Shown: positions 1 to 14,487 of the stretch, piece after piece
Numbering within the stretch: the stretch's first letter is position 1
Layout of the letters: each line of letters begins with the position of its first letter
IMG/VR virus record: IMGVR_UViG_2700989272_000004
Location: 1-14,487 of that record
Strand: one strand, 5' to 3'
Length of the DNA stretch: 14,487 bases
DNA from: a virus
Lineage: Duplodnaviria > Heunggongvirae > Uroviricota > Caudoviricetes
Notes under the pieces: generated by a model
Databases searched by the model: none
What the model was told of the DNA's origin: nothing
What the model saw: the letters and a program-made list of their open reading frames with translations, nothing else
Made by a program: the position numbers and the translations under genes

Positions 1-681
1 AACTGGATGGCAGGCCTGAAGTCCGGCTGGAGTGAGTGGGAAGAGAGCGCCACGGACAGTATGTCGCAGGTAAAAAGTGCAGCCACGCAGACCTTTGATG
101 GTATTGCACAGAATATGGCGGCGATGCTGACCGGCAGTGAGCAGAACTGGCGCAGCTTCACCCGTTCCGTGCTGTCCATGATGACAGAAATTCTGCTTAA
201 GCAGGCAATGGTGGGGATTGTCGGGAGTATCGGCAGCGCCATTGGCGGGGCTGTTGGTGGCGGCGCATCCGCGTCAGGCGGTACAGCCATTCAGGCAGCT
301 GCGGCGAAATTCCATTTTGCGACCGGGGGATTTACGGGAACCGGCGGCAAATATGAGCCAGCGGGGATTGTTCACCGTGGTGAATTTGTCTTCACGAAGG
401 AGGCAACCAGCCGGATTGGTGTCGGCAACCTGTACCGCCTGATGCGGGGCTATGCGGAAGGTGGTTATGTGGGCGGTGCCGGAAGTCCGGCGCAGATGCG
501 GCGGGCTGAAGGCATTAATTTTAATCAGAACAATCACGTGGTGATTCAGAACGACGGTACGAATGGTCTGCCAGGTCCACAGATGATGAAGGCGGTGTAT
601 GACATGGCCCGCAAGGGTGCCCGTGATGAAATCCAGGCACAGATGCGCGATGGTGGTCTGTTCTCCGGAGGTGGACGATGA
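1..681 (+). CDS. H: Tail tape measure protein, C-terminal portion (5' end lies upstream of the window); lambda gpH-like
   Basis: Open frame runs from base 1 to TGA at 679-681. Translation (NWMAGLKSGWSEWEES...GGLFSGGGR) matches my memory of the lambda gpH C-terminus, including the Gly-rich GSIGSAIGGAVGGG segment. Stop overlaps the start of M, as in lambda. Confidence 0.9.
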   Translation, partial: NWMAGLKSGWSEWEESATDSMSQVKSAATQTFDGIAQNMAAMLTGSEQNWRSFTRSVLSMMTEILLKQAMVGIVGSIGSAIGGAVGGGASASGGTAIQAAAAKFHFATGGFTGTGGKYEPAGIVHRGEFVFTKEATSRIGVGNLYRLMRGYAEGGYVGGAGSPAQMRRAEGINFNQNNHVVIQNDGTNGLPGPQMMKAVYDMARKGARDEIQAQMRDGGLFSGGGR

Positions 682-1007
682 AAACCTTCCGCTGGAAAGT
701 GAAACCCGGTATGGATGTGGCTTCGGTCCCTTCTGTAAGAAAGGTGCGCTTTGGTGATGGCTATTCTCAGCGAGCGCCTGCCGGGCTGAATGCCAACCTG
801 AAAACGTACAGCGTGACGCTTTCTGTCCCCCGTGAGGAGGCCACGGTACTGGAGTCGTTTCTGGAAGAGCACGGGGGCTGGAAATCCTTTCTGTGGACGC
901 CGCCTTATGAGTGGCGGCAGATAAAGGTGACCTGCGCAAAATGGTCGTCGCGGGTCAGTATGTTGCGTGTTGAGTTCAGCGCAGAGTTTGAACAGGTGGT
1001 GAACTGA
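678..1007 (+). CDS. M: Minor tail protein M (109 aa)
   Basis: ATG at 678 overlaps the H stop (ATGA). The 109-aa product (MKTFRWKVKPGMDV...) has the same length and near-identical sequence to lambda gpM as I recall it. Position between H and L is syntenic. Confidence 0.9.
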   Translation: MKTFRWKVKPGMDVASVPSVRKVRFGDGYSQRAPAGLNANLKTYSVTLSVPREEATVLESFLEEHGGWKSFLWTPPYEWRQIKVTCAKWSSRVSMLRVEFSAEFEQVVN

Positions 1008-1705
1008 TGCAGGATATCCGGCAGGAAACACTGAATGAATGCACCCGTGCGGAGCAGTCGGCCAGCGTGGTGCTCTGGGAAATCGATCTGACAGAGGTCG
1101 GTGGAGAACGTTATTTTTTCTGTAATGAGCAGAACGAAAAAGGTGAGCCGGTCACCTGGCAGGGGCGACAGTATCAGGCGTATCCCATTCAGGGGAGTGG
1201 TTTTGAACTGAATGGCAAAGGCACCAGTACGCGCCCCACGCTGATGGTTTCTAACCTGTACGGTATGGTCACCGGGATGGCGGAAGATCTACAGAGTCTG
1301 GTCGGCGGAACGGTGGTCCGGCGTAAGGTTTACGCCCGTTTTCTGGATGCGGTGAACTTCGTCAACGGAAACAGTGACGCCGATCCGGAGCAGGAGGTGA
1401 TCAGCCGCTGGCGCATTGAGCAGTGCAGCGAACTGAGCGCGGTGAGTGCCTCTTTTGTACTGTCCACGCCGACGGAAACGGACGGCGCTGTTTTTCCGGG
1501 ACGTATCATGCTGGCCAACACCTGCACCTGGACCTATCGCGGTGATGAGTGCGGTTATCACGGTCCGGCAGTCGCGGATGAATATGACCAGCCGACGTCC
1601 GATATCACGAAGGATAAATGCAGCAAATGCCTGAGCGGCTGTAAGTTTCGCAATAACGTCGGCAACTTTGGCGGCTTCCTTTCCATTAACAAACTTTCGC
1701 AGTAA
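1007..1705 (+). CDS. L: Tail tip protein L (232 aa)
   Basis: ATG at 1007 overlaps the M stop (TGATG). The 232-aa product matches lambda gpL in length and sequence, including the C-terminal Cys cluster (CGYHG...CSKCLSGC). Confidence 0.92.
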   Translation: MQDIRQETLNECTRAEQSASVVLWEIDLTEVGGERYFFCNEQNEKGEPVTWQGRQYQAYPIQGSGFELNGKGTSTRPTLMVSNLYGMVTGMAEDLQSLVGGTVVRRKVYARFLDAVNFVNGNSDADPEQEVISRWRIEQCSELSAVSASFVLSTPTETDGAVFPGRIMLANTCTWTYRGDECGYHGPAVADEYDQPTSDITKDKCSKCLSGCKFRNNVGNFGGFLSINKLSQ

Positions 1706-1710
1706 ATCCC

Positions 1711-2454
1711 ATGACACAGACAGAATCAGCGATTCTGGCGCACGCCCGGCGATGTGCGCCAGCGGAGTCGTGCGGCTTCGTGGTAAGCACGCCGGAGGGG
1801 GAAAGATATTTCCCCTGCGTGAATATCTCCGGTGAGCCGGAGGCGTATTTCCGTATGTCGCCGGAAGACTGGCTGCAGGCAGAAATGCAGGGTGAGATTG
1901 TGGCGCTGGTCCACAGCCACCCCGGTGGTCTGCCCTGGCTGAGTGAGGCCGACCGGCGGCTGCAGGTGCAGAGTGATTTGCCGTGGTGGCTGGTCTGCCG
2001 GGGGACGATTCATAAGTTCCGCTGTGTGCCGCATCTCACCGGGCGGCGCTTTGAACACGGGGTGACGGACTGTTACACGCTGTTCCGGGATGCTTATCAT
2101 CTGGCGGGGATTGAGATGCCGGATTTTCATCGCGAGGATGACTGGTGGCGTCACGGTCAGAATCTCTATCTGGATAATCTGGAGGCCACAGGGCTGTATC
2201 AGGTGCCGTTGTCATCAGCACAACCGGGCGATGTGCTGCTGTGCTGTTTTGGTTCATCGGTGCCGAATCATGCCGCCATTTACTGTGGTGACGGTGAGCT
2301 GCTGCACCATATTCCTGAACAACTGAGTAAACGAGAGAGGTACACCGACAAATGGCAGCGACGCACACACTCCCTCTGGCGTCACCGGGCATGGCACGCA
2401 TCTGCCTTTACGGGGATTTACAACGATTTGGCCGCCGCATCGACCTTCGTGTGA
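1711..2454 (+). CDS. K: Tail tip assembly protein K (JAMM/MPN plus NlpC/P60 domains); long form of 247 aa, classic lambda annotation would start at 1855
   Basis: ORF 1711..2454. JAMM-like motif HSHPGGLPWLSEAD (H-x-H-x7-S-x2-D) and a Cys/His set (DCYTLF, HAAIY) consistent with NlpC/P60. Sequence from MSPEDW (1855) onward matches lambda K as I remember it. The 3' end overlaps I by about 100 nt, as in lambda. Confidence 0.85.
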   Translation: MTQTESAILAHARRCAPAESCGFVVSTPEGERYFPCVNISGEPEAYFRMSPEDWLQAEMQGEIVALVHSHPGGLPWLSEADRRLQVQSDLPWWLVCRGTIHKFRCVPHLTGRRFEHGVTDCYTLFRDAYHLAGIEMPDFHREDDWWRHGQNLYLDNLEATGLYQVPLSSAQPGDVLLCCFGSSVPNHAAIYCGDGELLHHIPEQLSKRERYTDKWQRRTHSLWRHRAWHASAFTGIYNDLAAASTFV

Positions 2455-3023
2455 AAACGGGGGCTGAAGCCATTCGGGCGCTGGCCACACAGCTCCCGGC
2501 GTTTCGTCAGAAACTGAGCGACGGCTGGTATCAGGTACGGATTGCCGGGCAGGATGTCAGCACGTCCGGATTAACGGCGCAGTTACATGAGACTCTGCCT
2601 GATGGCGCTGTGATTCATATTGTTCCCAGAGTCGCCGGGGCCAAGTCAGGTGGCGTATTCCAGATTGTCCTGGGGGCTGCCGCCATTGCCGGATCATTCT
2701 TTACCGCCGGGGCCACCCTTGCAGCATGGGGGGCAGCCATTGGGGCCGGTGGTATGACCGGCATCCTGTTTTCTCTCGGTGCCAGTATGGTGCTCGGTGG
2801 TGTGGCGCAGATGCTGGCACCGAAAGCCAGAACTCCCCGTACACAGACAACGGATAACGGCAAACAGAACACCTATTTCTCCTCACTGGATAACATGGTT
2901 GCCCAGGGCAATGTTCTGCCTGTTCTGTACGGTGAAATGCGCGTGGGGTCACGCGTGGTTTCTCAGGAGATCAGCACGGCAGACGAAGGGGATGGTGGTC
3001 AGGTTGTGGTGATTGGTCGCTGA
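2352..3023 (+). CDS. I: Tail tip assembly protein I (223 aa)
   Basis: 223-aa ORF overlapping the K 3' end. Sequence matches lambda gpI from memory, including a Gly/Ala-rich hydrophobic segment (GAAAIAGSFFTAGATLAAWGAAIGAGG). Confidence 0.9.
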   Translation: MAATHTLPLASPGMARICLYGDLQRFGRRIDLRVKTGAEAIRALATQLPAFRQKLSDGWYQVRIAGQDVSTSGLTAQLHETLPDGAVIHIVPRVAGAKSGGVFQIVLGAAAIAGSFFTAGATLAAWGAAIGAGGMTGILFSLGASMVLGGVAQMLAPKARTPRTQTTDNGKQNTYFSSLDNMVAQGNVLPVLYGEMRVGSRVVSQEISTADEGDGGQVVVIGR

Positions 3024-3041
3024 TGCAAAATGTTTTATGTG

Positions 3042-3061
3042 AAACCGCCTGCGGGCGGTTT
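3042..3061 (+). other. Stem-loop in the I-J intergenic spacer (possible mRNA structure, not a full terminator)
   Basis: AAACCGCC (3042-3049), loop TGCG, GGCGGTTT (3054-3061). Followed by a T-poor sequence and the J ribosome-binding site. Confidence 0.3.
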
Positions 3062-3083
3062 TGTCGTTTATGGAGCGTGAGGA

Positions 3084-6000
3084 ATGGGTAAAGGCAGCAG
3101 TAAGGGGCATACCCCGCGCGAAGCGAAGGACAACCTGAAGTCCACGCAGCTGCTGAGTGTGATCGATGCCATCAGCGAAGGGCCGGTTGAAGGTCCGGTG
3201 GACGGATTAAAAAGCGTGCTGCTGAACAGTACGCCGGTGCTGGACAGTGAGGGGAATACCAATATATCCGGCGTCACGGTGGTGTTCCGGACCGGTGAGC
3301 AGGAGCAGTCACCGCCGGAGGGATTTGAATCCTCCGGCTCCGAGACGGTGCTGGGTACGGAAGTGAAATATGACACGCCGATCACCCGGGCCATTACGTC
3401 TGCAAACATCGACCGTCTGCGCTTTACCTTCGGTGTACAGGCACTGGTGGAAACCACCTCAAAGGGGGACCGGAATCCGTCGGAAGTCCGCCTGCTGGTT
3501 CAGATACAGCGTAATGGTGGCTGGGTGACGGAAAAAGACATCACCATTAAGGGCAAAACCACCTCGCAGTATCTGGCCTCGGTGGTGGTGGATAACCTGC
3601 CGCCGCGCCCGTTCAATATACGGATGCGCAGGATGACGCCGGACAGCACCACAGACCAGCTGCAGAACAAAACGCTCTGGTCGTCATACACCGAAATCAT
3701 CGATGTGAAACAGTGCTACCCGAACACGGCCCTGGTCGGCGTGCAGGTGGATTCGGAGCAGTTCGGCAGCCAGCAGGTGAGCCGTAATTATCATCTGCGC
3801 GGGCGCATTCTGCAGGTGCCGTCGAACTATAACCCGCAGACGCGGCAATACAGCGGTATCTGGGATGGAACGTTTAAGCCAGCATACAGCAACAACATGG
3901 CCTGGTGTCTGTGGGATATGCTGACCCATCCGCGCTACGGCATGGGGAAACGTCTTGGTGCGGCGGATGTGGATAAATGGGCGCTGTATGTCATCGGCCA
4001 GTACTGCGACCAGTCGGTGCCGGACGGCTTTGGCGGCACGGAGCCGCGCATCACCTGTAATGCGTACCTGACCACACAGCGCAAGGCGTGGGATGTTCTC
4101 AGTGATTTCTGCTCGGCGATGCGCTGTATGCCGGTATGGAACGGGCAGACGCTGACGTTCGTGCAGGACCGACCGTCGGATAAGGTGTGGACCTATAACC
4201 GCAGTAATGTGGTGATGCCGGATGATGGCGCGCCGTTCCGCTACAGCTTCAGCGCCCTGAAGGACCGCCATAATGCCGTTGAGGTGAACTGGATTGACCC
4301 GGATAACGGCTGGGAGACGGCGACAGAGCTTGTGGAGGACACGCAGGCCATTGCCCGTTACGGTCGTAACGTCACGAAGATGGATGCCTTTGGCTGTACC
4401 AGCCGGGGGCAGGCACACCGCGCCGGGCTGTGGCTGATTAAAACGGAACTGCTGGAAATGCAGACCGTGGATTTCAGCGTGGGCGCAGAAGGGCTTCGCC
4501 ATGTGCCGGGCGATGTCATTGAAATCTGCGATGATGACTATGCCGGTATCAGCACCGGCGGGCGCGTGCTGGCGGTGAACAGCCAGACCCGGACGCTGAC
4601 GCTCGACCGTGAAATCACGCTGCCATCCTCCGGTACCACGCTGATAAGCCTGGTTGACGGAAGTGGCAATCCGGTCAGCGTGGAGGTTCAGTCCGTCACC
4701 GACGGTGTGAAGGTGAAAGTGAGCCGTGTTCCTGACGGCGTTGCCGGATACAGCATATGGGGGCTGAAGCTGCCGACGCTGCGCCAGCGCCTGTTCCGCT
4801 GTGTGAGTATCCGTGAGAACGATGACGGCACGTATGCCATCACTGCCGTGCAGCATGTACCGGAGAAAGAAGCCATCGTGGATAACGGGGCGCACTTTGA
4901 CGGCGACCAGAGCGGAACGGTAAACGGTGTCACGCCGCCAGCGGTGCAGCACCTGACCGCAGAAGTCACCGCAGACAGCGGGGAATACCAGGTGCTGGCG
5001 CGCTGGGACACGCCGAAGGTGGTGAAGGGCGTGAGTTTCCTGCTTCGCCTGACCGTGGCAGCGGATGACGGCAGTGAGCGGCTGGTCAGCACGGCCCGGA
5101 CGACGGAAACCACATACCGCTTCACGCAGCTGGCGCTGGGAAACTACAGGCTGACAGTCCGGGCGGCAAATGCCTGGGGACAGCAGGGCGATCCGGCATC
5201 GGTATCGTTCCGGATTGCCGCACCGGCAGCGCCGTCGCGGATTGAGCTGACGCCGGGCTATTTTCAGATAACCGCCACGCCGCATCTTGCCGTTTATGAT
5301 CCGACGGTACAGTTTGAGTTCTGGTTCTCGGAAAAGCGGATTGCGGATATCAGGCAGGTTGAAACCACAGCACGCTATCTTGGTACGGCGCTGTACTGGA
5401 TAGCCGCCAGTATCAATATCAAACCGGGCCATGATTATTACTTTTATATCCGCAGTGTGAACACCGTTGGCAAATCGGCATTTGTGGAGGCCGTCGGTCG
5501 GGCGAGCGATGATGCGGAAGGTTACCTGGATTTTTTCAAAGGCCAGATAACCGAATCCCATCTCGGCAAGGAGCTGCTGGAAAAAGTCGACCTGACGGAG
5601 GATAACGCCAGCAGACTGGAGGAGTTTTCGAAAGAGTGGAAAGACGCCAACGATAAATGGAATGCCATGTGGGGCGTCAAAATTGAGCAGACCAAAGACG
5701 GCAAACATTATGTCGCGGGGCTTGGCCTCAGCATGGAGGATACAGAGGAAGGCAAACTGAGCCAGTTTCTGGTTGCTGCTAACCGTATCGCGTTTATTGA
5801 CCCGGCAAACGGGAATGAAACGCCGATGTTTGTGGCGCAGGGCAACCAGATATTCATGAACGACGTGTTCCTCAAACGTCTGACGGCCCCCACCATTACC
5901 AGTGGTGGAAATCCACCGGTATTTTCCCTGACACCGGACGGAAAGCTGACCGCTAAAAATGCGGATATCAGTGGCAGTGTGAATGCGAACTCCGGGACGC

Positions 6001-6497
6001 TCAACAACGTCACGATAAATGAAAACTGTACGATTAAGGGCATGCTGGAGGCGAATCAGGTCAGAGGTGATTTTGTTAAAACAGTATCCAAATCATTCCC
6101 GAAAAAGGCTGGTACGTGGGGTAATACGGAAACACCAGACGGGACGGTTACAGTCACCATCAGCGATGATCATAACTTTGACCGTCAAATCATTATTCCG
6201 CCCATTATCTTTAACGGTATAGCGTATGACGCTCCGGGAAGTGGTGATAACCCGGGAGGTACAAGGTACACGGGGTATGGTTTTGAAGTTCGCAAAAACG
6301 GCGTATTAATCGCATCCAGAGAAACTAAAGGGGCCATTCCCGGTAGTTACAGTGCGGTTATTGATATGCCGAGTGGCAGGGGAAGCGTCACTCTGGAGTT
6401 TAAGATTTTCCAGAAAGGCAATCAGGGGGCAGGCAATATCACCGACTGTACGGTGATTGTGACCAAAAAGGCTGCTTCCGGTATCAGTATTCGTTGA
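3084..6497 (+). CDS. J: Central tail fibre / host-specificity protein J (1137 aa) with a diverged C-terminal receptor-binding domain
   Basis: ATG at 3084 preceded by GGAG/GAGGA. N-terminus [34 protein letters not shown] and most of the protein match lambda gpJ (1132 aa) from memory. The last ~150 aa (from about nt 6030) differ from the lambda C-terminus as I recall it, and the DNA there is visibly AT-richer. Confidence 0.95.
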
Positions 6498-6519
6498 AAT
6501 TGTTATAACCCCAATAAAG

Positions 6520-6543
6520 GGCGTCAGGAATGACGCCTTTTTT
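6520..6543 (+). terminator. Rho-independent terminator downstream of J
   Basis: Perfect 7-bp stem GGCGTCA (6520-6526) / TGACGCC (6531-6537), loop GGAA, followed by a T6 run (6538-6543). Confidence 0.75.
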
Positions 6544-6567
6544 ATTGCAGAAAAGCGAGAGGTAATT

Positions 6568-7167
6568 ATGCGTAAAGTTTGTGCAGCCATTTTGTCCGCA
6601 GCCATCTGTCTGGTCGTATCCGGTGCGCCTGCATGGGCGTCTGAACATCAGTCCTCGCTGAGCGCGGGGTATCTTCATGCCTCGACGAACGTTCCCGGCA
6701 GCGATGATCTTAACGGGATTAACGTGAAATACCGTTATGAGTTTACGGACACGCTGGGGATGGTGACGTCATTCAGTTATGCAGAAGACAAGAATCGCCA
6801 GCTGACTCATTACAGCGATACCCGCTGGCATGAAGATTCCGTGCGTAACCGCTGGTTCAGCGTGATGGCGGGGCCGTCTGTGCGCGTGAATGAATGGTTC
6901 AGCGCGTATGCGATGGCGGGTGTGGCTTACAGCCGTATTTCTACTTTCTCCGGGGATTATCTCCGCGTAACTGACAACAAGGGGAAAACGCACGAAGTGC
7001 TGACCGGAAGTGATGACGGTCGCCGCAGCAACACGTCTCTGGCGTGGGGGACTGGCGTGCAGTTTAACCCGACCGAATCCGTGGCCATTGATATTGCTTA
7101 TGAAGGCTCCGGCAGTGGCGACTGGCGCACTGACGGTTTCATCGTGGGTGTCGGTTATAAGTTCTGA
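6568..7167 (+). CDS. lom: Lom-family outer-membrane beta-barrel protein (Ail/Lom/PagC family), 199 aa
   Basis: Signal-peptide-like N-terminus (MRKVCAAILSAAICLVVSGAPAWA). C-terminus AIDIAYEGSGSGDWRTDGFIVGVGYKF and GINVKYRYEFTD match lambda Lom from memory. Position directly after J is syntenic with lambda. Confidence 0.9.
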   Translation: MRKVCAAILSAAICLVVSGAPAWASEHQSSLSAGYLHASTNVPGSDDLNGINVKYRYEFTDTLGMVTSFSYAEDKNRQLTHYSDTRWHEDSVRNRWFSVMAGPSVRVNEWFSAYAMAGVAYSRISTFSGDYLRVTDNKGKTHEVLTGSDDGRRSNTSLAWGTGVQFNPTESVAIDIAYEGSGSGDWRTDGFIVGVGYKF

Positions 7168-7194
7168 TTAGCCAGGTAACACAGTGTTATGACA

Positions 7195-7220
7195 GCCCGC
7201 CGGTTCAGGCGGGCTTTTTT
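7195..7220 (+). terminator. Rho-independent terminator downstream of lom
   Basis: Stem GCCCGCC (7195-7201) / GGCGGGC (7208-7214), loop GGTTCA, followed by a T6 run (7215-7220). Confidence 0.75.
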
Positions 7221-7231
7221 GTGGGGTGAAT

Positions 7232-10200
7232 ATGGCAGTAAAGATTTCAGGTGTACTGAAAGACGGTGCAGGTAAACCGGTACAGAACTGCACAATCCAG
7301 CTGAAAGCAAAACGTAACAGCACCACGGTGGTGGTGAACACGGTGGCCTCAGAAAATCCGGATGAAGCCGGGCGTTACAGCATGGACGTTGAGTACGGTC
7401 AGTACAGCGTTATTCTGTTGGTGGAAGGCTTCCCGCCATCGCATGCCGGGACCATCACCGTGTATGAAGACTCACAACCGGGTACGCTGAATGATTTTCT
7501 TGGTGCCATGACGGAGGATGATGCCCGTCCGGAGGCACTGCGCCGCTTTGAACTGATGGTGGAAGAGGTGGCGCATAACGCGTCCGCAGTGGCACAGAAC
7601 ACGGCAGCCGCAAAGAAGTCAGCCAGCGATGCCGGCACATCTGCCCGTGAGGCGGCAACCCATGCAACCGATGCTGCAGGCTCAGCACGTGCCGCCAGCA
7701 CGTCAGCCGGACAGGCTGCATCATCTGCTCAGTCAGCATCTTCCAGCGCAGGAACGGCATCAACAAAGGCCACTGAAGCATTAAAAAGTGCTGCCGCTGC
7801 AGAGTCCTCAAAAAGCGCGGCAGCCACCAGTGCCGGTGCGGCGAAAACGTCAGAAACGAATGCCGCAGCATCACAACTATCAGCAGCCACTTCTGCATCC
7901 ACCGCGACCACGAAGGCGTCAGAAGCTGCCACCTCAGCCCGGGATGCGGCGGCCTCAAAAGAGGCAGCGAAATCATCAGAAACGAACGCATCATCAAGTG
8001 CCAGTAGTGCAGCTTCCTCGGCAACGGCGGCAGGAAATTCCGCGAAGGCCGCAAAAACGTCTGAGACGAATGCGGATAACAGCGCACAGGCGGCAGCAGA
8101 CTCACAAACTGCATCGGCAAACTCCGCGACAGCAGCCAAAAAATCAGAAACCAACGCGAAAAATAGCGAGGCAGCAGCAAAGAGCAGCGAAACAAACGCT
8201 AAAGCCAGCGAAACTAATGCTAAATCCAGTGAAACAAACGCGGCGAAATCTGCGGCGGACGCACTTAATTATCGCAACCAGGCGCAAGTAATTGTTGGGG
8301 GTAATATCGGTCTTGGCTCAGCTCCGCGTGATTGTCCTGATATTTCCGGCAACCCATCAGGGTATATCGGATTTATGCGTATTCGTGAAGCAGCCACTGG
8401 TTTTCCGTCCATTGCTTCAGGTGAGTCGTACTTAACAGGCTTTATTAGCGGTTGCGATGGTTCTCCTACATATGCGGGTATATTCCAGGGTTGGAATTCA
8501 AGATCCCTGTATACCTATCGCTGGTCGAGCGCCACAGGCCCGCAATGGACACGTCACGCAAGAAAGGATGAAGTTGACCGTCTTGACCAATGGAATAGCG
8601 AAACATGGTTATATAATCATGATAAATCCATGCGACTTGGTTTAACCGCCTCATCATGGGGTTGTTACAGCGACACACAAAAAAAATGGATACCACTTGA
8701 TGTTTCTCATGGTGGTACTGGTGCGGCAACTATTGATGGTGCAAGAACTAATCTTGGATTAGGCAGGGATAACAGCCCTCAACTTAACAGTCTATTTCTT
8801 GATAGATATAGTGATTCTACTGGCGCATACACTACTGGCGGAATGCTCCATACGAGGCTGTTAGCAAATGACAACACTGTGCGCCTTGCCGCTGATATGT
8901 ATGTTCAGACTTTTCCAAATGAGCAAGGTCGATTAACAATAAGGTTTACATACGGTGGTTCAACTGGTGCTACAAAATGTCTAGACCTTAACTCAGAAGG
9001 TAATTTAATTGTAGATAGTGCGATACTGAAATCAACGGTCGAAAAACCTTTACAAATAAATAGTGCTAACCCGGCAATAAGATTTAATGAAACAGATCGC
9101 CCGGCTAACACGCCTACTTATACTCTCATTGCTAATGCTGGCGACTGGTTTATTCAGAAACGCGATTATGATGATGCCGGAAGCGTTAGTAACGCAATTT
9201 CATATAATTTCGCAAACGACAGAATTGATGTGCAAAATCTTAAAGCGTCTGGGTTAATTACAGCTAACTCAGGAATCGCAACATTAACAGGTCATGACTG
9301 GAACGCTCAGCATACTGATAACGTCGACAAATTTAGACCAATCGCAGGCAGTACAAACGGCCCGGCAGGTTCTATGGTTCTTGGCGGCATTCATGTTCAA
9401 TTTAGTAAAAATTATGCTGTGCAGTTCGGAGGCCGCAATTCCGGTTTTTGGGGAAGAACAATTGAAAATGGAACGACGCAGGAATGGAAGAAATTACTAA
9501 CAGTAGACGATCTCAATTCATCTACCGATCTTGCTGTCAGGTCATTAACCACATCTAACCCGGTAAAATCTGGCGGAGGGCGAATTGATGTCCTTGGAAG
9601 CACGTCAGACTATAGCAAAATGGATTGCTTTGTACGTGGGTTTGATAGCACCGGTAATTCTCTCGCGTGGGCGTTGGGTTCATCAGTCGGCGTAAGTAAG
9701 ATGCTGTCGCTAAAAAATTTCTTTAGCGGAGCTGAGATACTGTTAAATGGTAATGACGGCGCGGTTCAACTCAAAACAGGTGCTGTTAACGGGGCTAAAG
9801 CGCAGACGCTCACTATCAACAAGGATGAGGTTAACTCAACTGTTGATTTAACTCTTACAAAACAAACAGGGACTGGAAATAGTTTTGTTTTACAGAACTT
9901 AGGTAATACAGAACTATCATTTGCCGCAAAAGTATGGGGATCAAGTGATCGACAAAACGTTTTTGAGGTTGGAACGTCTGCTGCGTATCTGTTTTATGCG
10001 CAAAAAACGTCAGCAGGCCAGTTGTTTGATGTAAATGGCGCTATTAATTGCACAACGCTGAATCAGTCATCAGACCGCGACCTTAAAGACGATATTCTCG
10101 TTATCAGCGACGCGACGAAAGCAATCCGTAAAATGAACGGATACACCTACACGCTCAGGGAAAACGGGATGCCTTATGCTGGCGTTATTGCACAGGAAGT

Positions 10201-10504
10201 AATGGAGGCGATACCAGAAGCTGTGGGATCGTTTACTCATTACGGTGAAGAGTTGCAGGGACCAACGGTTGACGGCAATGAATTACGTGAAGAAACACGT
10301 TATCTGAATGTTGACTACGCCGCCGTGACGGGGTTACTTGTTCAGGTCGCCCGTGAAACAGATGATCGCGTTACCGCGCTGGAAGAGGAAAACACAACGC
10401 TACGTCAAAATCTGGCAACAGCAGGCACCCGGATCAGCATTCTGGAAAATCAGGTAAGCGAACTGGTTGCACTTGTCCGGCAGTTAACAGGAAGCGAACA
10501 TTGA
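7232..10504 (+). CDS. stf: Side tail fibre protein, mosaic: lambda Stf-like N-terminus with Ser/Ala-rich repeats, novel C-terminal module ending in a peptidase-S74-like intramolecular chaperone domain
   Basis: ATG at 7232 with GGGGTG upstream (the ORF track starts at an in-frame GTG at 7226). N-terminal ~280 aa (MAVKISGVLKDGAGKPVQNCTIQLKAKRNSTTVVV...) match lambda Stf from memory. The C-terminal ~145 aa (SDRDLKDDILVISDATKAIRKMNGYTYT...LEEENTTLRQNLA...) resemble the self-cleaving chaperone domain of K1F endosialidase / T5 pb1-type fibres. DNA after about nt 8280 is visibly AT-richer. Confidence 0.88.
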   Translation: MAVKISGVLKDGAGKPVQNCTIQLKAKRNSTTVVVNTVASENPDEAGRYSMDVEYGQYSVILLVEGFPPSHAGTITVYEDSQPGTLNDFLGAMTEDDARPEALRRFELMVEEVAHNASAVAQNTAAAKKSASDAGTSAREAATHATDAAGSARAASTSAGQAASSAQSASSSAGTASTKATEALKSAAAAESSKSAAATSAGAAKTSETNAAASQLSAATSASTATTKASEAATSARDAAASKEAAKSSETNASSSASSAASSATAAGNSAKAAKTSETNADNSAQAAADSQTASANSATAAKKSETNAKNSEAAAKSSETNAKASETNAKSSETNAAKSAADALNYRNQAQVIVGGNIGLGSAPRDCPDISGNPSGYIGFMRIREAATGFPSIASGESYLTGFISGCDGSPTYAGIFQGWNSRSLYTYRWSSATGPQWTRHARKDEVDRLDQWNSETWLYNHDKSMRLGLTASSWGCYSDTQKKWIPLDVSHGGTGAATIDGARTNLGLGRDNSPQLNSLFLDRYSDSTGAYTTGGMLHTRLLANDNTVRLAADMYVQTFPNEQGRLTIRFTYGGSTGATKCLDLNSEGNLIVDSAILKSTVEKPLQINSANPAIRFNETDRPANTPTYTLIANAGDWFIQKRDYDDAGSVSNAISYNFANDRIDVQNLKASGLITANSGIATLTGHDWNAQHTDNVDKFRPIAGSTNGPAGSMVLGGIHVQFSKNYAVQFGGRNSGFWGRTIENGTTQEWKKLLTVDDLNSSTDLAVRSLTTSNPVKSGGGRIDVLGSTSDYSKMDCFVRGFDSTGNSLAWALGSSVGVSKMLSLKNFFSGAEILLNGNDGAVQLKTGAVNGAKAQTLTINKDEVNSTVDLTLTKQTGTGNSFVLQNLGNTELSFAAKVWGSSDRQNVFEVGTSAAYLFYAQKTSAGQLFDVNGAINCTTLNQSSDRDLKDDILVISDATKAIRKMNGYTYTLRENGMPYAGVIAQEVMEAIPEAVGSFTHYGEELQGPTVDGNELREETRYLNVDYAAVTGLLVQVARETDDRVTALEEENTTLRQNLATAGTRISILENQVSELVALVRQLTGSEH
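8180..8242 (+). repeat. Three tandem in-frame 21-bp repeats encoding K(S/A)SETNA heptads, inside a wider Ser/Ala-rich low-complexity tract (about 7590-8260) of stf
   Basis: Codons read KSSETNA-KASETNA-KSSETNA at 8180-8242. Further dispersed (K/A)(T/S)SETNA copies near 7847, 7970, 8055 and 8140. Confidence 0.8.
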
Positions 10505-10552
10505 TATCCTTCAAGCCCTGAAGGAGGCTGTTCCTGGTACGTTCAGACTGTT

Positions 10553-10675
10553 GTTGAGCTGGAGATCGCAACGGAGGAAGAAATCTCGTTGCTGGAAGCA
10601 TGGAAAACATATCGGGTATTGCTGAACCGTGTTGATACAGTAAACCCCGTCTGGCCTCCACCTTCGAAGCGATAG
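10553..10675 (+). pseudogene. 3'-terminal remnant of a tail fibre assembly gene (tfa), about 40 codons, no start codon
   Basis: Translation [40 protein letters not shown] matches the conserved Tfa C-terminus (lambda Tfa ends ...[36 protein letters not shown]... as I recall). It is in frame with, and 3' of, the stf TGA stop at 10502-10504. Confidence 0.65.
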
Positions 10676-10979
10676 CCCAGCAACTCCTAAATAGCTGCGC
10701 ATAATACCGCTACACCAGCCGTTTTACTGACATTTGGAATATTGCGTGAGGGCAACATATCGAGGGGCAGATACAGCTCGGTCAAATAGAAAAACAGCCC
10801 CACTATTTACCATGCAATAGCTGGTCAAAAGGAGAGCACTATTCCGCTCCGCGTAGTATTTTGTGTTTATAGTGATAACTTAGGTAATGCTTAGTCACTA
10901 AGATACTTTGCTATTGGAGAGCGATTTATAATGTGGGCGCAACAGATTTTTACTATTGCGCCACTTGCTCTTGTGAGTA

Positions 10980-12068
10980 CTATTCGCTATAAGTTAATGT
11001 TGGTTTTGAAAGTCTTTTGGATATTGTTTTTCCGATATTAATGAATGGAGTTTCAATATATTTATAAATAAAGAATGATAAGAACAAGCTAAGAGCAATA
11101 ATGAATGAAAACTTAGAAAACCCAGGTTTTTCATAAAGCGGAATGAAATCCTTAAAATTAATTAAAAATAGCATTACTATCGCATGGGATAAATACAGAG
11201 AGTAAGAGATATCACCTAGCTTACTGAGTATTTTATTTTCCCTTAATCCGAAGTTAACTTCATAAAGTAAAACTCCCGTAATTATGGAGGCTGCCCACAA
11301 TCCGAAGTTTAAAGGGCCATGACCAAATCTGAATTGATAAAAATATGAGCAAACACCAAATGAAACCAAAAGGAATGATATCGCCTTTGCGTTTTTTATA
11401 TGTTTAAATTTTCTGTGTATTATATACAGAAACATCCCATAAACGAATTCTAACAGCATGGGTGATGACATTAAGTTTAGAAAGCCAATATGCCAATGAC
11501 CTGTATCACCAATCGTAAACTTACTTGATAGAGAAAGGCTGTTGGAAAATTTCAACTGTATGAGAAGTAGCGGGACTATCAATGCAATAACTGATATTAA
11601 TAATCTGTTTTTATGACTCAGCGATATTGCAAGCATAAAAATGAAATAAAAATAGACTTCAAAGGTTAATGTCCATGCTGGATAAAGCACGTTGTATCCG
11701 AAGAATGGCGCTTCTGAATAATAGTCCAGGTGAAGCAGAAACAATGAACGCAATAATTCACTTTCGGTGAAGACCGGGTTCAATAAAAAGAATAAGATTG
11801 TGCAAATGAAAAATACAGGGTAAATCCTGAAAAAACGCCTGGTCATAAAGTTAATAGGGGAATTTGTTTCTTTTTTTTGACTCGATAGCATTATTATAAA
11901 TCCACTTATAATAAAAAACAGATCAACCCCAAAACCACCACTAATAAACAATAAATCACCTAGATCTTTTTGTGCGTAAACTTCATTTAGGTATTGTTTA
12001 TTGTGATATGCAACAACGAGTAATGCTGCTACACCTCGCAAATAGTGAATTGATTTTACCTTCTTCAT
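10980..12068 (-). CDS. Acyltransferase family 3 integral membrane protein (OafA/Oac-like; putative O-antigen/LPS O-acetyltransferase), 362 aa
   Basis: Signature motifs of the acyltransferase-3 family: YLRGVAALLVVAYH (R-x10-H), GVDLFFIISGF, FMTRRFFRIYP, GDISYSLYLSHA, YIETP. Highly hydrophobic throughout. DNA is strikingly AT-rich compared with the flanking phage genes. No obvious Shine-Dalgarno sequence. Confidence 0.88.
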   Translation of the reverse strand: MKKVKSIHYLRGVAALLVVAYHNKQYLNEVYAQKDLGDLLFISGGFGVDLFFIISGFIIMLSSQKKETNSPINFMTRRFFRIYPVFFICTILFFLLNPVFTESELLRSLFLLHLDYYSEAPFFGYNVLYPAWTLTFEVYFYFIFMLAISLSHKNRLLISVIALIVPLLLIQLKFSNSLSLSSKFTIGDTGHWHIGFLNLMSSPMLLEFVYGMFLYIIHRKFKHIKNAKAISFLLVSFGVCSYFYQFRFGHGPLNFGLWAASIITGVLLYEVNFGLRENKILSKLGDISYSLYLSHAIVMLFLINFKDFIPLYEKPGFSKFSFIIALSLFLSFFIYKYIETPFINIGKTISKRLSKPTLTYSE

Positions 12069-12282
12069 TTTTATATAATCACTGTTCCAATTTTTTTTAT
12101 TTTACAAACAATTCTATCTAGCTCATTAGTACTCAAAGTCAGATTGGTAGCAATAAAAAAACAAGATATGTGATGACATGGCGCGGGGCTCAGAACCACT
12201 CGTGTATTTTCGCCACTGGCTATGACTGGCTGCACCTGCAAGATCTGCCATTTGTGTGCCAGTATACCCAAGCTCTGACTTT

Positions 12283-12784
12283 ATGTTTACCAGATCCTCT
12301 GGAGTGCCGGGGAGTATAATCGTTGATTAATCGAATCTGCAACTATTTCAGAACGACCTAGGTTAAAGTGCGCTCTGCAGTCTCTTATATAAGGTGATAC
12401 TTTAATTGTCTGGAAACTGGACAGGTTAGGAAGGAGCAGGAAACATCTTATTATACTTACCGAGTAGCTGCGGGTAAGGGGGGGGGATTTCCGTAGCCTG
12501 ACAGGTAACATTGACACGTCAACACCGATGGTTTTTTTATTTTTCCATGTGATGGGGCCCTGGTTGAAATGAAGCGTGAACTGATTGATGACTGAACAAA
12601 AGTTGGACTGGAAGATGCTCGCGCACAGGGAGGAATTGGTGGACGTCGTCCTAAACTTACATCAGAACAATGGGCGCAGGCCGGGCGATTAATTGCATCA
12701 GGAGTTCCTCGCCAGAAGGTGGCGATCATCTATGATATTGGCATATCGACTTTGTATAAGAAGTTTCCGGTCGGAGATAAATGA
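12283..12784 (+). pseudogene. Decayed serine DNA invertase gene (Pin/Hin/Gin/Cin family) with frameshifts and in-frame stops
   Basis: Recognisable invertase segments lie in three different frames: ERPRLKCALQSLI*GDTLIVWKLDRLGRSRKHLIILTE (frame of 12393), DFRSLTGNIDTSTPM and FFHVMGALVEMKRELIDD* around 12487-12595, and an intact C-terminal helix-turn-helix GGIGGRRPKLTSEQWAQAGRLIASGVPRQKVAIIYDIGISTLYKKFPVGDK* (12629-12784). In-frame stops at 12390 and 12593. Confidence 0.75.
12478..12486 (+). repeat. G9 homopolymer tract inside the invertase pseudogene
   Basis: Nine consecutive G at 12478-12486. The invertase reading frame changes in this neighbourhood. Confidence 0.9.
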
Positions 12785-12887
12785 AACCGTAGCACGTCGT
12801 ATGCAAGAACGTGCCACGGCTGGCTGGCGAACTTTCGATAGTGCGAGTATTGAATGATTTCCAGCCGTTACCGATTTTACGTGTTAA

Positions 12888-13136
12888 TTAGTGAACAAAC
12901 CACTCGTCAGCAGATTCCCAGGTGTCTTTCAGAGTCTCCTGAACAAAAGTTTTTGCAGAATCCTTATCTGCGGTGCGTGTAACAGAAAGACCATCGTTGC
13001 TGGTGGCTTTTACGATCACCTCTACATCGTCATAACGTTTACTGATGCGTCGGGTTAATTCTTCCTTTAACGCATCCACAGCACCGGTTGGCATTTTAGT
13101 CATTTTTTCTTTGGCTATGCAGATTTCAATACGCAT
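12888..13136 (-). CDS. DinI-family protein (DNA-damage-inducible protein I-like), 82 aa
   Basis: [11 protein letters not shown]...[16 protein letters not shown] resembles E. coli DinI (MRIEVTIAK...ETWESADDWFV) as I recall it. GAGGGA Shine-Dalgarno 6 nt upstream of the ATG. Two LexA boxes in its promoter. Confidence 0.85.
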
Positions 13137-13149
13137 AAAAGTCCCTCTA

Positions 13150-13169
13150 TACTGTGTTTGTATACAGTA
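13150..13169 (-). promoter_or_regulatory. LexA (SOS) box 1, promoter-proximal, upstream of the dinI-like gene
   Basis: TACTGTGTTTGTATACAGTA: a perfect TACTG-N10-CAGTA palindrome, 14-33 nt upstream of the dinI-like start codon. Confidence 0.75.
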
Positions 13170-13171
13170 TT

Positions 13172-13201
13172 ATTTTTAACTGTATGGATAAACAGTGTCA
13201 A
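13172..13201 (-). promoter_or_regulatory. Putative sigma70 promoter of the dinI-like gene (-35 TTGACA, 17-nt spacer, -10 TAAAAAT)
   Basis: On the - strand: TTGACA (complement of 13196-13201), 17-nt spacer, TAAAAA(T) (complement of 13172-13178). The -35 overlaps the integrase stop codon at 13198-13200. Confidence 0.5.
13178..13197 (-). promoter_or_regulatory. LexA (SOS) box 2, lying in the spacer of the putative dinI-like promoter
   Basis: AACTGTATGGATAAACAGTG (CTGT-N8-ACAG core), centred about 28 bp from box 1. Confidence 0.65.
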
Positions 13202-14295
13202 GGGGTCTTATTTCTGCTCCTTTGGAGCTCTTCAAAACGATTATGTAAAGATTTCGGATACAGTTCGGTATATACCTGCCATAGCACGTTTAATGAACGA
13301 TGCCCTGTAACCTGGGCTACTTCCTCAATACTAAAACCAGCCTCAAATAAGCGACTTGCCCCTTCTCTACGCAAATCATGGTATCGCAGATCCTTAATAC
13401 CTAATTTGCTTCTTACCCTCTGAAATCCCGCAGTAACAGAAGTGCTGTTATATGGAAAAATGAATTCCGATTTTTTGGGCTGTCGTTGGACGATATCCCA
13501 GGCTTCCCCAAGCAAGGCTACTTTCATGTGGTTGCCTTCCTTTTTGCGTGGATCTTTCCTGTCTCTTACGAGTATAGATTTTTGTTCCTGGTCGAGATCT
13601 TCCCATCGTAACCGGCATACTTCTCCGATTCGCATACAGGACCACACAGAAAATTTGAGGATATCAACGAACGGAATTTTTGAGCATTTATGAGTAGATC
13701 GTTGTTGAAGGCCTTCAATGAGCATGTCCAGTTCATCAGATGCTGGTCTACGATTACGACGGTTTGATTTACCAATCAAACCAAGTTTAAGTAGATATGG
13801 ACGAGCACTTTTCGCCGGGTTTGATGTGTAATTAATTCCGTATACAGGTTTGGCCGCATCCAGAACACTGCCAAGATAACTAACATCGTGGCTGACTGTT
13901 GCTGGACCTGCGCCAGCGTTGTTTCTTAGCCTGCAATGTTCAATTACGTCATTTTCTGTCAGTTCAGATAGTTTGATCGCGGAGATGTCACTATCCATAA
14001 GCAGTTCCAGCACATATCTTTTAGTACGGCCTGCTTTACCTCCGGCATTTGGGTCATTTAAATATTTGTGTAGTAAGTCACGGACTGTAAGTCCGTCAAC
14101 TGCATTTGATGATGGAATGCCATATAGATCTAATTCCATCACTTTCTGTGTGCCCCATGTTTTGGCATGAGCATGTTTAGGGAATGTTTTGCTTTCCCTG
14201 TAAGTGATAACACCTTTTTCTTTGATAATCACATTACAGCGATAGCGTGGTGTGCCATCGGATTTTAGTCGTTTCTCTATGTTATAGTACGCCAT
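13198..14295 (-). CDS. int: Tyrosine recombinase / phage integrase, 365 aa
   Basis: 365-aa ORF with GAGG Shine-Dalgarno 8 nt upstream. C-terminal catalytic-domain motifs typical of tyrosine integrases: LRYHDLRREGASRL (H-x-x-R) and VTGHRSLNVLWQVYTELY (His plus nucleophilic Tyr). Confidence 0.92.
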   Translation of the reverse strand: MAYYNIEKRLKSDGTPRYRCNVIIKEKGVITYRESKTFPKHAHAKTWGTQKVMELDLYGIPSSNAVDGLTVRDLLHKYLNDPNAGGKAGRTKRYVLELLMDSDISAIKLSELTENDVIEHCRLRNNAGAGPATVSHDVSYLGSVLDAAKPVYGINYTSNPAKSARPYLLKLGLIGKSNRRNRRPASDELDMLIEGLQQRSTHKCSKIPFVDILKFSVWSCMRIGEVCRLRWEDLDQEQKSILVRDRKDPRKKEGNHMKVALLGEAWDIVQRQPKKSEFIFPYNSTSVTAGFQRVRSKLGIKDLRYHDLRREGASRLFEAGFSIEEVAQVTGHRSLNVLWQVYTELYPKSLHNRFEELQRSRNKTP

Positions 14296-14314
14296 TACAC
14301 GACCTCGTTATTTC

Positions 14315-14350
14315 GGGTTCCCATAAAACGTGGGAACCTGTGCGGGAACC
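14315..14350. other. Inverted/direct GGGAACC repeat cluster upstream of int (possible protein-binding sites or 5'-UTR hairpin)
   Basis: GGGTTCCCA (14315-14323) and TGGGAACC (14331-14338) form an 8-bp-stem hairpin with a 7-nt loop. A third GGGAACC copy at 14344-14350. Confidence 0.3.
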
Positions 14351-14487
14351 TAACGCGAGAAAAATAGCCTGAAATGTTCAAAAATGCACGATAATCATGA
14401 AACACAAAAAATTAATCAAACCAGCGTGATGCCTGAAAAAACTGGTGTTTACTGGAATTCTCGGTTTAGCATTGCTCCTATGCTCGA

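Follow-up and report, generated by a model that had tools for sequence, protein, structure and literature searches.

The window analysed here is a stretch of 14,487 nucleotides from a virus of the Caudoviricetes (positions 1 to 14,487 of IMG/VR record IMGVR_UViG_2700989272_000004), in which the tyrosine integrase gene int begins about 2.7 kb past the tail gene stf. The sequence-only reading, which held that int and the tail genes lie at opposite ends of an integrated lambda-like prophage, offered three explanations: the gene order of a free phage, a second element abutting the prophage end, or a remnant join. Its integrase and its tail arm (J, lom and stf) are both borne out by protein family searches (Table 1), and the question is why the two are adjacent. 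The window is very probably the right-hand (attR) end of an mEp460-like lambdoid prophage, which targets the 5' end of dusA, the host gene for tRNA-dihydrouridine synthase, through a DusA-associated tyrosine integrase. A dusA-targeting prophage with its att site 5' of int is already known biology: the DusA-associated integrases (DAIs), with their dusA-specific prophages and islands, have been described as a family (Farrugia 2015, PMC4482086).

Table 1. Features of the window and the basis for their assignment
Feature	Position	Strand	Basis
J	3084-6497	+	Pfam
lom	6568-7167	+	Pfam
stf, with C-terminal S74 chaperone domain	7226-10504	+	Pfam
Tail-fibre-assembly remnant	about 10552-10674
Acyltransferase	10980-12068	-	Pfam Acyl_transf_3, E 9e-35
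Decayed Pin/Gin-type invertase, N-terminus lost, internal stop	about 12335-12784	+
dinI-like gene, 82 aa	12888-13136	-	Pfam DinI, E 1e-19; NCBIfam PRK10597
Two LexA-box-like sites, TACTGTGTTTGTATACAGTA and AACTGTATGGATAAACAGTG	13152-13195	.	CTG-N10-CAG search
int, DusA-associated tyrosine integrase, 365 aa	13198-14295	-	ORF list; Pfam PF00589 (Phage_integrase), E 1e-20
P-arm repeat cluster, proposed arm-type Int sites	14316-14350	.	Repeat search and comparison
Phage surrogate dusA 5' end (phi-dusA'), MHDNHETQKINQTSVMPEKTGVYWNSRFSIAPML	14384-14487	+	ORF running off the window
Left and central part of semi-conserved att motif of about 21 bp (GCTCCTATGCTCGA...)	14472-14487	.	attB stretch printed in PMC6328086; rest beyond the window
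Crossover core (overlap region), ATGCTCGA	14480-14487	.	Comparison of attP, attB, attL and attR

Gene order in the free phage and in lysogens

The virion-derived genome of mEp460 carries, contiguously, lom-stf-dinI-int-dusA'-attP, two ORFs, a PrtN excisionase gene and exo. Two prophage-derived records with lambdoid tails, phiSTEC1575-Stx2k and 1720a-02, end in the same order, tail fibre-dinI-int-dusA'. Together with mEp460 they refute a second abutting element and a remnant join. In the lysogen Escherichia coli 19-5, the host genes zur and DUF2713 and a dusA 5' pseudogene precede the prophage, which runs from PrtN through the tails, an invertase gene, dinI and int to the host genes dusA-pspG-qorA. 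The phage order proposed from the sequence, J, cargo, attP, int, was thus right in being native and wrong in the place of attP; the actual order is J, cargo, dinI, int, attP, with attP on the 5' side of int. The lambda-type layout, with attP 3' of int and between the b region and int, was not found in this family, and int and the tails share one end in lysogens.

Copies 100% identical to window positions 10500-14487 (and 99.5% identical from 9286 on, the 3' part of stf included) run on into CTGGACGG... and then into host dusA-pspG-qorA-dnaB. They come from five scaffolded draft assemblies only, the scaffolds of which break in stf. Since these copies continue into host dusA, the window is not a junction of two elements. 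They and the 19-5 lysogen keep int and the tails together at the attR end, so that a search for att repeats placing the two at opposite ends gave the opposite result. Host dusA and the P' arm both lie outside the window, whose final base is the final base of the core, and it is the identical copies elsewhere that suggest an integrated state for the window's own element.

Having attP 5' of int keeps int, dinI, the cargo and the tail genes at one prophage end, and the PrtN/RdfN-type excisionase and the early genes go to the other (attL) end. As int is next to the tails whether the phage is free or integrated, gene order says nothing about state. Of 5426 complete E. coli genomes, 726 have an identical or near-identical int divergently adjoining full-length dusA (at least 80% query coverage). 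In other genera the divergent int-dusA arrangement was found in 34 of 52 relatives, with an intergenic region of ~88 nt.

Crossover core and the phage-borne dusA 5' end

The sequence-only reading saw no evident att site. A four-way comparison places the core within the ORF that is cut off by the window's end, as the only stretch common to attP, attB, attL and attR. To its left, attP (mEp460 and SKA5) and attR are alike; to its right, attP and attL are alike (TAGGATG...), as are attB (K-12) and attR (CTGGACGG...), which continue into host dusA. The integrated (attR) form accordingly reads CTGGACGGAC..., and the free or circular (attP) form, present in the mEp460 and SKA5 genomes, reads TAGGATGTA.... 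In E. coli 19-5, attL and attR share ATGCTCGA, and the dusA sequence to the left of it is 83% identical, giving imperfect direct repeats. The att sites and the core are observed, as is the gene order in both states.

The core agrees with the 7-base core and the Citrobacter rodentium attB, GCTCCCATGCTCGACTGGA (reverse complement of the printed sequence), of phage 1720a-02 (Phi-stx2dact), for which insertion 100 bp into dusA and Int-dependent attP formation were demonstrated experimentally (PMC6328086). The published attP primer for that phage (AttP R), GGGTTCCCATAAAACGTGGG, is identical to window positions 14315-14334. A semi-conserved 21-bp att motif of dusA-specific elements has been described (PMC4482086), and ..GC.CC.ATG.T.GA.TGGAC is conserved at the motif across 30 divergent loci. 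Excision as a circle, re-forming attP and attB, was shown in 1720a-02 and would be expected of the window's element, the Int of which is one residue apart. The PrtN homologue RdfN has been shown to be the recombination directionality factor (RDF) of dusA-specific elements (PMC8409611).

The last 104 nt of the window are a phage-borne substitute for the start of dusA. This phi-dusA', MHDNHETQKINQTSVMPEKTGVYWNSRFSIAPML (host counterpart, MHGNSEMQKINQTSAMPEKTDVHWSGRFSVAPML), matches the displaced 5' end of host dusA at 83% identity over 107 nt; that host fragment is annotated as a pseudogene at attL. RefSeq gives lysogens a full-length dusA of 345 aa that begins at ATG 14384; an internal in-frame ATG at 14429 (MPEK) is a second candidate start. 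The long frame stays open in 68 of the 69 related loci, and the feature has been described both for 1720a-02 (PMC6328086) and for the DAI family (PMC4482086). A consensus scan of 14296-14487 gave no promoter for int or dusA. The 10-codon mini-ORF noted in the initial reading (14397-14429) is present in the letters; as a meaningful ORF it did not hold up, being out of frame inside the dusA N-terminal extension, absent from host dusA and not conserved. A role as leader peptide or upstream ORF was rejected on these grounds: about 22 of 69 loci have CTG for its ATG, three have an internal stop and several others lack its stop.

Integration would proceed by Int exchanging strands in the core of attP with the same 8 bases of host dusA, which lie ~100 nt inside that gene. 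The host dusA promoter and first ~104 nt would be stranded as a truncated fragment at attL, and the phage promoter region with the N-terminal ~34 codons would fuse in frame to the remaining dusA at attR, so that a full-length dusA ORF would be kept. The attP taking part would comprise a P arm with three GGGAACC-type sites in the int-dusA' intergenic region, the 104-nt dusA 5' copy, the core, and a P' arm of ~70 nt outside the window.

Integrase domains and putative arm sites

The window Int is identical in all 365 residues to that of the 19-5 prophage (adjoining dusA), in 364 of 365 to that of 1720a-02 and in 359 of 365 to that of mEp460. The catalytic residues are R222, H306, R309 and H332 (the RHRH tetrad) and the nucleophilic Y342; R222, H332 and Y342 never vary in a 61-sequence alignment, in which H306 and R309 are conserved in at least 90%. 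The characterised recombinase nearest to it in sequence is Rci rather than lambda Int (PMC4482086; likewise the CDD note on the mEp460 record). Three domains are predicted: an N-terminal three-stranded sheet plus helix (residues 2-58), a core-binding domain and a catalytic domain. Residues 1-70 matched no named family in Pfam, NCBIfam or PDB sequence searches, and the structure model is the only informative source for them. In the AlphaFold model (pLDDT 86), strands at 2-10, 16-26 and 29-38 are followed by a helix at 41-58 (pLDDT 82-95). Full-length lambda Int chains align with the model over 346-370 columns, a comparison of whole models rather than of the N-domain alone. We infer that Int is heterobivalent like lambda Int, its N-domain reading GGGAACC arm sites in both arms and its C-terminal domains acting at the core.

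The three repeat copies and the hairpin recognised in the initial reading are where it had placed them: an inverted GGTTCCC at 14316-14322 and direct GGGAACC copies at 14332-14338 and 14344-14350. The window has four copies of GGGAACC, where 1.56 would be expected over the whole 14.5 kb, and three of the four fall within these 35 nt. The cluster lies upstream of int, 20-55 nt from its ATG, and 130-165 nt from the core. An inverted copy followed by two direct copies 11-13 nt apart was found at 24 of 30 divergent int-dusA loci, compared with 59 of 6000 shuffles. This architecture-specific test was substituted for a generic statistic (any 7-mer repeated three times), which failed to separate real P arms from shuffles. 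Across the core, the P' arm, GGGAGCCtattGGGAACC, has two direct copies of the motif at +44 and +55 in mEp460, SKA5 and the 19-5 attL. Repeated sites separate from the core sites are thus found on both attP arms, three in P and two in P'.

Equivalent, lineage-specific sets of sites occur in YeP1, Kp4884-1, Vibrio 1F53_PE004, Marinobacter AS1, Pseudoalteromonas C5a and Shewanella M16-3; the P' direct copies follow the core at 42-56 nt in most of the lineages compared and at 64-85 nt in two. The divergent examples in the attP state came from tblastn of phage records; an IMG/VR integrase search returned 80 loci, all E. coli relatives 89-100% identical, which were useless for co-variation and served only in the mini-ORF test. 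The 7-bp motif differs by lineage (GGGAACC, GGGGTGC, GGTGTCC, GGTGTAC, GGAGCAC or GGGGTAC). Among pairs of integrases 65-75% identical in the rest of Int, N-domain identity is 0.79 for pairs with the same motif versus 0.61 for pairs with different motifs, a co-variation partly confounded by phylogeny, as motif classes coincide with clades. The suggestion that the repeats are att-related binding sites gains from this comparison, in which they occur on both attP arms and track the Int N-domain; arm-type Int sites are the probable reading of the GGGAACC repeats.

A less likely alternative is that the cluster (GGGTTCCCA/TGGGAACC/GGGAACC) is an operator for a PrtN-type excisionase or a repressor, or an RNA or DNA hairpin controlling int or dusA expression. 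It lies where a regulator would, between the divergent int and dusA starts, and two of its three copies form an inverted repeat, which in Escherichia sp. MOD1-EC7003 is altered on both sides (GGGTCCCCA...TGGGGACC), as would suit either a hairpin or a protein site with symmetry. Binding to att-arm repeats is also known of excisionases, as established for lambda Xis. However, the third P-arm copy is direct and outside the hairpin, and on the far side of the core from int the motif recurs as two direct P' copies at +44/+55 in six lineages that differ in their motifs, which fits a recombination architecture better. Motif class also agrees better with the Int N-terminal domain than with the remainder of the protein, and that domain is modelled with the arm-binding topology of lambda Int.

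With the repeats read as arm-type Int sites, we tentatively propose, as a possibility short of an even chance, that DAIs use a conserved set of five arm sites: in P, one inverted and two direct copies about one helical turn apart, and in P', two direct copies. The motif would co-vary with residues of the Int N-terminal sheet, and Int occupancy could couple recombination to expression of int and host dusA, since the P-arm sites sit between their divergent starts. The searchable literature yielded no description of an arm-repeat layout tracking the Int N-domain; PMC4482086 makes no mention of att-arm repeats, and the word "arm" is absent from its text.

The dinI-cargo region and the origin of the arrangement

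The dinI-like gene belongs to a conserved invertase/dinI/int right-end module and is placed alike in mEp460, SKA5, 1720a-02 and the 19-5 prophage. The 61-nt spacer between the int stop and the dinI start (13137-13197) is filled by the dinI promoter, as first proposed. It holds a promoter-like TTGACA-18-AAAAAT on the minus strand (13201 to 13172), overlapped by LexA-box-like sites at 13152-13167 and 13180-13195, and a promoter is annotated at the same spot in the mEp460 record. An att site at the int 3' end was considered and rejected, the spacer being this LexA-box-bearing promoter, with no break in homology between phage and lysogen. On the tail side of dinI, a cargo block of 2.1 kb (10640-12783), with the acyltransferase and decayed invertase genes, stands in place of 59 nt of mEp460. 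It is also found, at 95-98% identity, in a prophage remnant of E. coli A35 by an icd duplication, where RefSeq gives the invertase as a pseudogene.

This mosaic block, shared with a remnant at icd, could be taken to mean that the integrase came from a second mobile element (a tandem prophage, satellite or island) abutting a lambdoid tail end, and the exact cargo-plus-int combination (the whole of 10500-14487 in one place) occurs in none of the complete E. coli genomes in the collection. Such an origin is highly improbable. The 44.5-kb mEp460 genome has the tail arm (94-96% identity) and dinI-int-dusA' contiguously, with one integrase, and in 19-5 the early genes, the structural genes, dinI and int all fall within one attL/attR pair. 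The att site on the dusA side is past int rather than between it and the tails, and the mosaic joint (12784-12879) falls in sequence common to both parental arrangements, as in ordinary exchange of lambdoid modules. The vegetative order of lambda (J, b region, attP, int) would suit a window made of the joined ends of a circular or permuted lambda-type assembly, with attP between the cargo and the int 3' end, yet the chance of this is negligible given the LexA-controlled dinI promoter in that spacer, the break points of all four att forms at 14480-14487 and the integrated copies that keep the order.

Comparison with characterised systems

Like the DAI elements of PMC4482086, the window has a tyrosine recombinase gene divergent to dusA, a single insertion point within the 5' end of dusA, a substitute 5' end with the beta-1 strand segment (RFSIAPML) in it, and an att motif round the core; E. 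coli members are already listed there, and nothing essential differs. Phage 1720a-02 of C. rodentium (KF030445; Balasubramanian et al. 2019, PMC6328086) shares the dinI-int-dusA' module at 96% identity and has its lambdoid tail fibre beside dinI and int at the same prophage end. Unlike the window, it carries stx2 and other tail-fibre genes and lacks the block of acyltransferase and pseudo-invertase. The closest full phage genome is that of mEp460 (NC_019716), which covers 73% of the window at 95.7% identity and in the same order; neither attP nor the dusA' fragment is annotated in its record.

With lambda, the family shares a predicted three-domain Int and a separate excisionase and, judged by sequence, an attP some 250 bp long, both arms of which bear repeated sites at 40-165 nt from an overlap region of 7-8 bp. 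It differs in that attP lies 3' of int in lambda and 5' of int here, which keeps int by the tail arm; attP separates int from the excisionase gene, the two being at opposite prophage ends; and the target is a protein-coding gene, the 5' end of which is replaced. The dusA-specific elements of Vibrio (Rivard et al. 2021, PMC8409611) have the same target site and integrase family and a PrtN-homologue RDF across attP from int, and their excision needs only Int and RdfN. They are IncC-mobilisable islands, not phages. In the window's family the RDF gene lies outside the window and is seen in relatives (mEp460 gp25 and the 19-5 prophage).

Implications

For annotation, int beside the tails should not be taken for a junction or a tandem element, nor for a misassembly. 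The prophage boundary is now placed to the base, with the att site inside a short dusA-like ORF upstream of int, and about 13% of complete E. coli genomes carry a dusA-adjoining int of this common prophage family. If true, the co-variation of arm motif and N-domain would amount to a readable protein-DNA recognition code. If confirmed, the arm-site sets could help predict the attP limits of dusA-targeting phages, islands and Stx phages, and their co-variation with the N-domain would offer a simple system for how heterobivalent integrases evolve new arm specificities.

Integrase family and attachment site

The window integrase belongs to the DusA-associated integrases described by Farrugia et al. 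2015 (PMC4482086), whose elements have a single insertion site, the 5' end of dusA, and supply a replacement 5' end (PMC4482086). The last 104 bases of the window encode MHDNHETQKINQTSVMPEKTGVYWNSRFSIAPML, which sequence comparison identifies as a diverged version of the E. coli DusA N-terminus MHGNSEMQKINQTSAMPEKTDVHWSGRFSVAPML, and this phage-borne dusA 5' end (dusA') shares 83% nucleotide identity with the host dusA 5' end over 107 nt. In 726 of 5426 complete E. coli genomes, the integrase gene lies divergently beside a dusA annotated as full-length. The same arrangement, with an intergenic region of ~88 nt, is found in 34 of 52 relatives from other genera (Kosakonia, Xenorhabdus, Serratia, Proteus, Vibrio, Shewanella, Aeromonas, and others).

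No att site had been evident to the sequence-only reading. The site was located on the 5' side of int by comparing attP (free phages mEp460 and SKA5), attB (E. coli K-12 dusA), and attL and attR (E. coli 19-5 lysogen). A phage-type left side is common to attP and attR, the right side TAGGATGTA... to attP and attL, and the right side CTGGACGGAC... to attB and attR; ATGCTCGA is the sole stretch common to all four. This core lies at 14480-14487, and the window's final base is the final base of the crossover core. The site was missed because it is hidden 5' of int in a coding-looking ORF, with its diagnostic bases one position past the window.

This mapping agrees with experiments on phage 1720a-02 (Phi-stx2dact), which inserts 100 bp into dusA, has a 7-base core within a 21-bp motif of dusA-specific elements, supplies a “phi-dusA'” ORF, and requires Int for attP regeneration (PMC6328086). 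Its Int differs from that of the window at 1 of 365 residues, and its published attP primer (PMC6328086) corresponds to window positions 14315-14334. The recombination module is nearly identical to those of experimentally studied phages, and the element shows all the testable features that define dusA-specific prophages with DusA-associated integrases.

In some relatives (IMG/VR loci L061, L126, and L128), the dusA' segment is a hybrid, with phage-type sequence at its 5' end and sequence of the host type (…TDVHWSGRFSVAPML) close to the core, and the core is polymorphic among IMG/VR loci (ATGCTCGA versus ATGCTTGA). Such patterns fit homologous exchange between the two dusA 5' copies that flank the prophage, one from the phage and the other the displaced host copy, which are 83% identical.

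Candidate DusA start codons are ATG 14384 and ATG 14429. The mini-ORF at 14397-14429 noted previously is present as sequence but was rejected as a gene: it lies out of frame within the annotated dusA N-terminal extension, is missing from host dusA, and is poorly kept in 69 related loci (CTG replaces ATG in about 22, 3 have an internal stop, and several others lack the stop codon). In 68 of the 69, the long frame that starts at ATG 14384 is uninterrupted. The GAAAAATA block and dusA ORF start ATGCACGAAAAT (14355-14395) are conserved at the DNA level in very divergent elements (loci L008 to L047) and host dusA, and protein-level conservation is absent from the codons that follow in these loci; this conserved stretch may serve dusA or int as a promoter or as a signal for translation start.

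Gene content and order

The window comprises a lambda-type tail arm and then a short right-end module, and all sequence features listed by the sequence-only reading were recovered at their coordinates. The tail-fibre-assembly gene was probably made redundant by the S74 intramolecular chaperone domain.

Gene content of the window
Feature	Position	Strand	Remark
Tape-measure gene (end only), then M, L, K, I			Tail arm
J	3084-6497		Tail arm
lom	6568-7167		Tail arm
Side tail fibre (stf)	7226-10504		Tail arm; S74 chaperone domain at C-terminus
Tail-fibre-assembly gene remnant	10552-10674		3' of S74-ending side tail fibre
Acyl_transf_3 acyltransferase	10980-12068	minus	
Pin/Gin-type invertase	about 12335-12784		Decayed
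dinI-like gene	12888-13136	minus	
LexA-box-like site TACTGTGTTTGTATACAGTA	13152-13167		Spacer upstream of dinI
LexA-box-like site AACTGTATGGATAAACAGTG	13180-13195		Spacer upstream of dinI
Tyrosine integrase	13198-14295	minus	365 aa
ORF running past window end	14384-14487	plus	dusA' 5' end

The position of int beside the tails appears anomalous because the lambda layout, with attP 3' of int, does not fit this element, in which attP is 5' of int. Free mEp460 has the order lom, stf, dinI, int, dusA'/attP, two small ORFs, PrtN-type excisionase, and exo, and opening this circle at attP leaves int joined to the tail arm. The 19-5 lysogen reads zur, DUF2713, displaced dusA 5' pseudogene (attL), PrtN-family gene, early genes, structural genes, tail fibres, invertase, dinI, int (attR), dusA, pspG, and qorA. 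The prophage-derived records of phiSTEC1575-Stx2k and 1720a-02, which have lambdoid tails, likewise end with tail fibre, dinI, int, and dusA'. In five draft assemblies, copies of the window right end run directly into host dusA and then pspG, qorA, and dnaB; identity is 100% in four (from about 10500-10582 to 14487) and 99.5% in the fifth, which matches from 9286 and includes the stf 3' end. The order tails, cargo, dinI, int is therefore the natural one for this phage type, whether free or integrated, in line with the earlier option of a phage-type gene order. The window most plausibly represents an integrated prophage's attR end, cut off at the core. RdfN, a PrtN homologue, drives excision of dusA-specific elements in Vibrio (PMC8409611), and the placement of the PrtN-type excisionase across attP from int matches this system.

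Another earlier option, a second element abutting the prophage, is contradicted by mEp460, one phage genome with tail arm and int module contiguous, and by the 19-5 lysogen, in which a single att pair encloses everything; the stf-to-int homology break is only ordinary mosaic replacement. The mosaic block at 10640-12783 (acyltransferase and pseudo-invertase) takes the place of 59 nt of mEp460, with a joint at 12784-12879 in sequence common to both arrangements. Other E. coli also have this block, at 95 to 98% identity, within a prophage remnant next to the icd duplication (locus L006, E. coli A35, 5054-7381), and no complete E. coli genome of the collection has it together with the dusA integrase. 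Likewise contradicted is a join of permuted assembly ends that would put attP at the 3' end of int, as the spacer there is the dinI promoter and the break points of all att forms fall at 14480-14487.

The two LexA-box-like sites in this 61-nt spacer suggest tight SOS control of the DinI homologue next downstream of int.

Repeats in the attP arms

Three GGGAACC copies at 14316-14350 form the sole cluster of this heptamer in the window; one further copy occurs elsewhere in the 14.5 kb (1.56 expected for the whole window). Within 80 nt upstream of int (P arm), an inverted copy and, after it, two direct copies 11 to 13 nt apart were found in 24 of 30 divergent int-dusA loci, compared with 59 of 6000 shuffles. 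The motif varies by lineage (GGGAACC, GGGGTGC, GGTGTCC, GGTGTAC, GGATACC, or GTGACCC).

Across the core from int (P' arm), two copies of the lineage's own motif are present wherever this arm is readable: at +44/+55 after the core in mEp460, SKA5, 19-5 attL, and Yersinia YeP1, +42/+53 in Klebsiella Kp4884-1, +45/+56 in Vibrio 1F53_PE004, +64/+75 in Marinobacter AS1, and with less regular spacing in Pseudoalteromonas C5a and Shewanella M16-3. The observed count was reached in 2 to 25 of 2000 shuffles (eight forms, M16-3 left out), and motifs of other lineages had no match in 25 of 40 cross-tests. The conserved layout and the recurrence in the P' arm bear out the earlier proposal of these repeats as candidate binding or att-related sites. 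In Escherichia sp. MOD1-EC7003 (locus L007; Int 99% identical), the region homologous to 14315-14338 has both inverted-repeat halves altered together (GGGTCCCCA...TGGGGACC versus GGGTTCCCA...TGGGAACC), and the third copy is still GGGAACC.

The AlphaFold model of Int (pLDDT 86) has strands at residues 2-10, 16-26, and 29-38 and a helix at 41-58, a predicted topology shared with the arm-binding domain of lambda Int; full-length chains of lambda Int align with the model over 346-370 columns. Among pairs with 65 to 75% identity in the remaining sequence, N-domain identity is 0.79 with a shared motif versus 0.61 with different motifs. The N-domain thus appears to track motif class, a co-variation that is only partly independent evidence because motif classes coincide with clades. 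Judged from repeat sequence and modeled fold, the GGGAACC-type repeats are most likely arm-type Int sites of a lambda-like heterobivalent integrase, although an excisionase or regulator may bind them instead of Int. No mention of arm sites for DusA-associated integrases was found in the searchable literature, excluding subscription journals, and the arm sites with N-domain co-variation, not found described there, are a modest lead.

Distribution and significance of the module

The same integrase/attP module and arm layout occur in unrelated virus types, namely, non-tailed 14-kb Vibrio elements of the Tectiliviricetes (Vibrio phage 1F53_PE004; L144/L145), P2-like myoviruses of the Peduoviridae (Pseudoalteromonas C5a; L141), and lambdoid siphoviruses (Yersinia YeP1; L139); virus lineages therefore exchange the int-attP cassette. 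Klebsiella phage Kp4884-1 (L142/L143) has a 52% identical integrase and the same tandem arm repeats at both record ends. No dusA-like segment is recognizable between its P arm and the end of the record, and its integrase may use a different target gene.

The dusA prophage explanation of the window is established biology and, as an anomaly, of little interest; what it offers in practice is a rule for annotation and the exact position of the prophage boundary.
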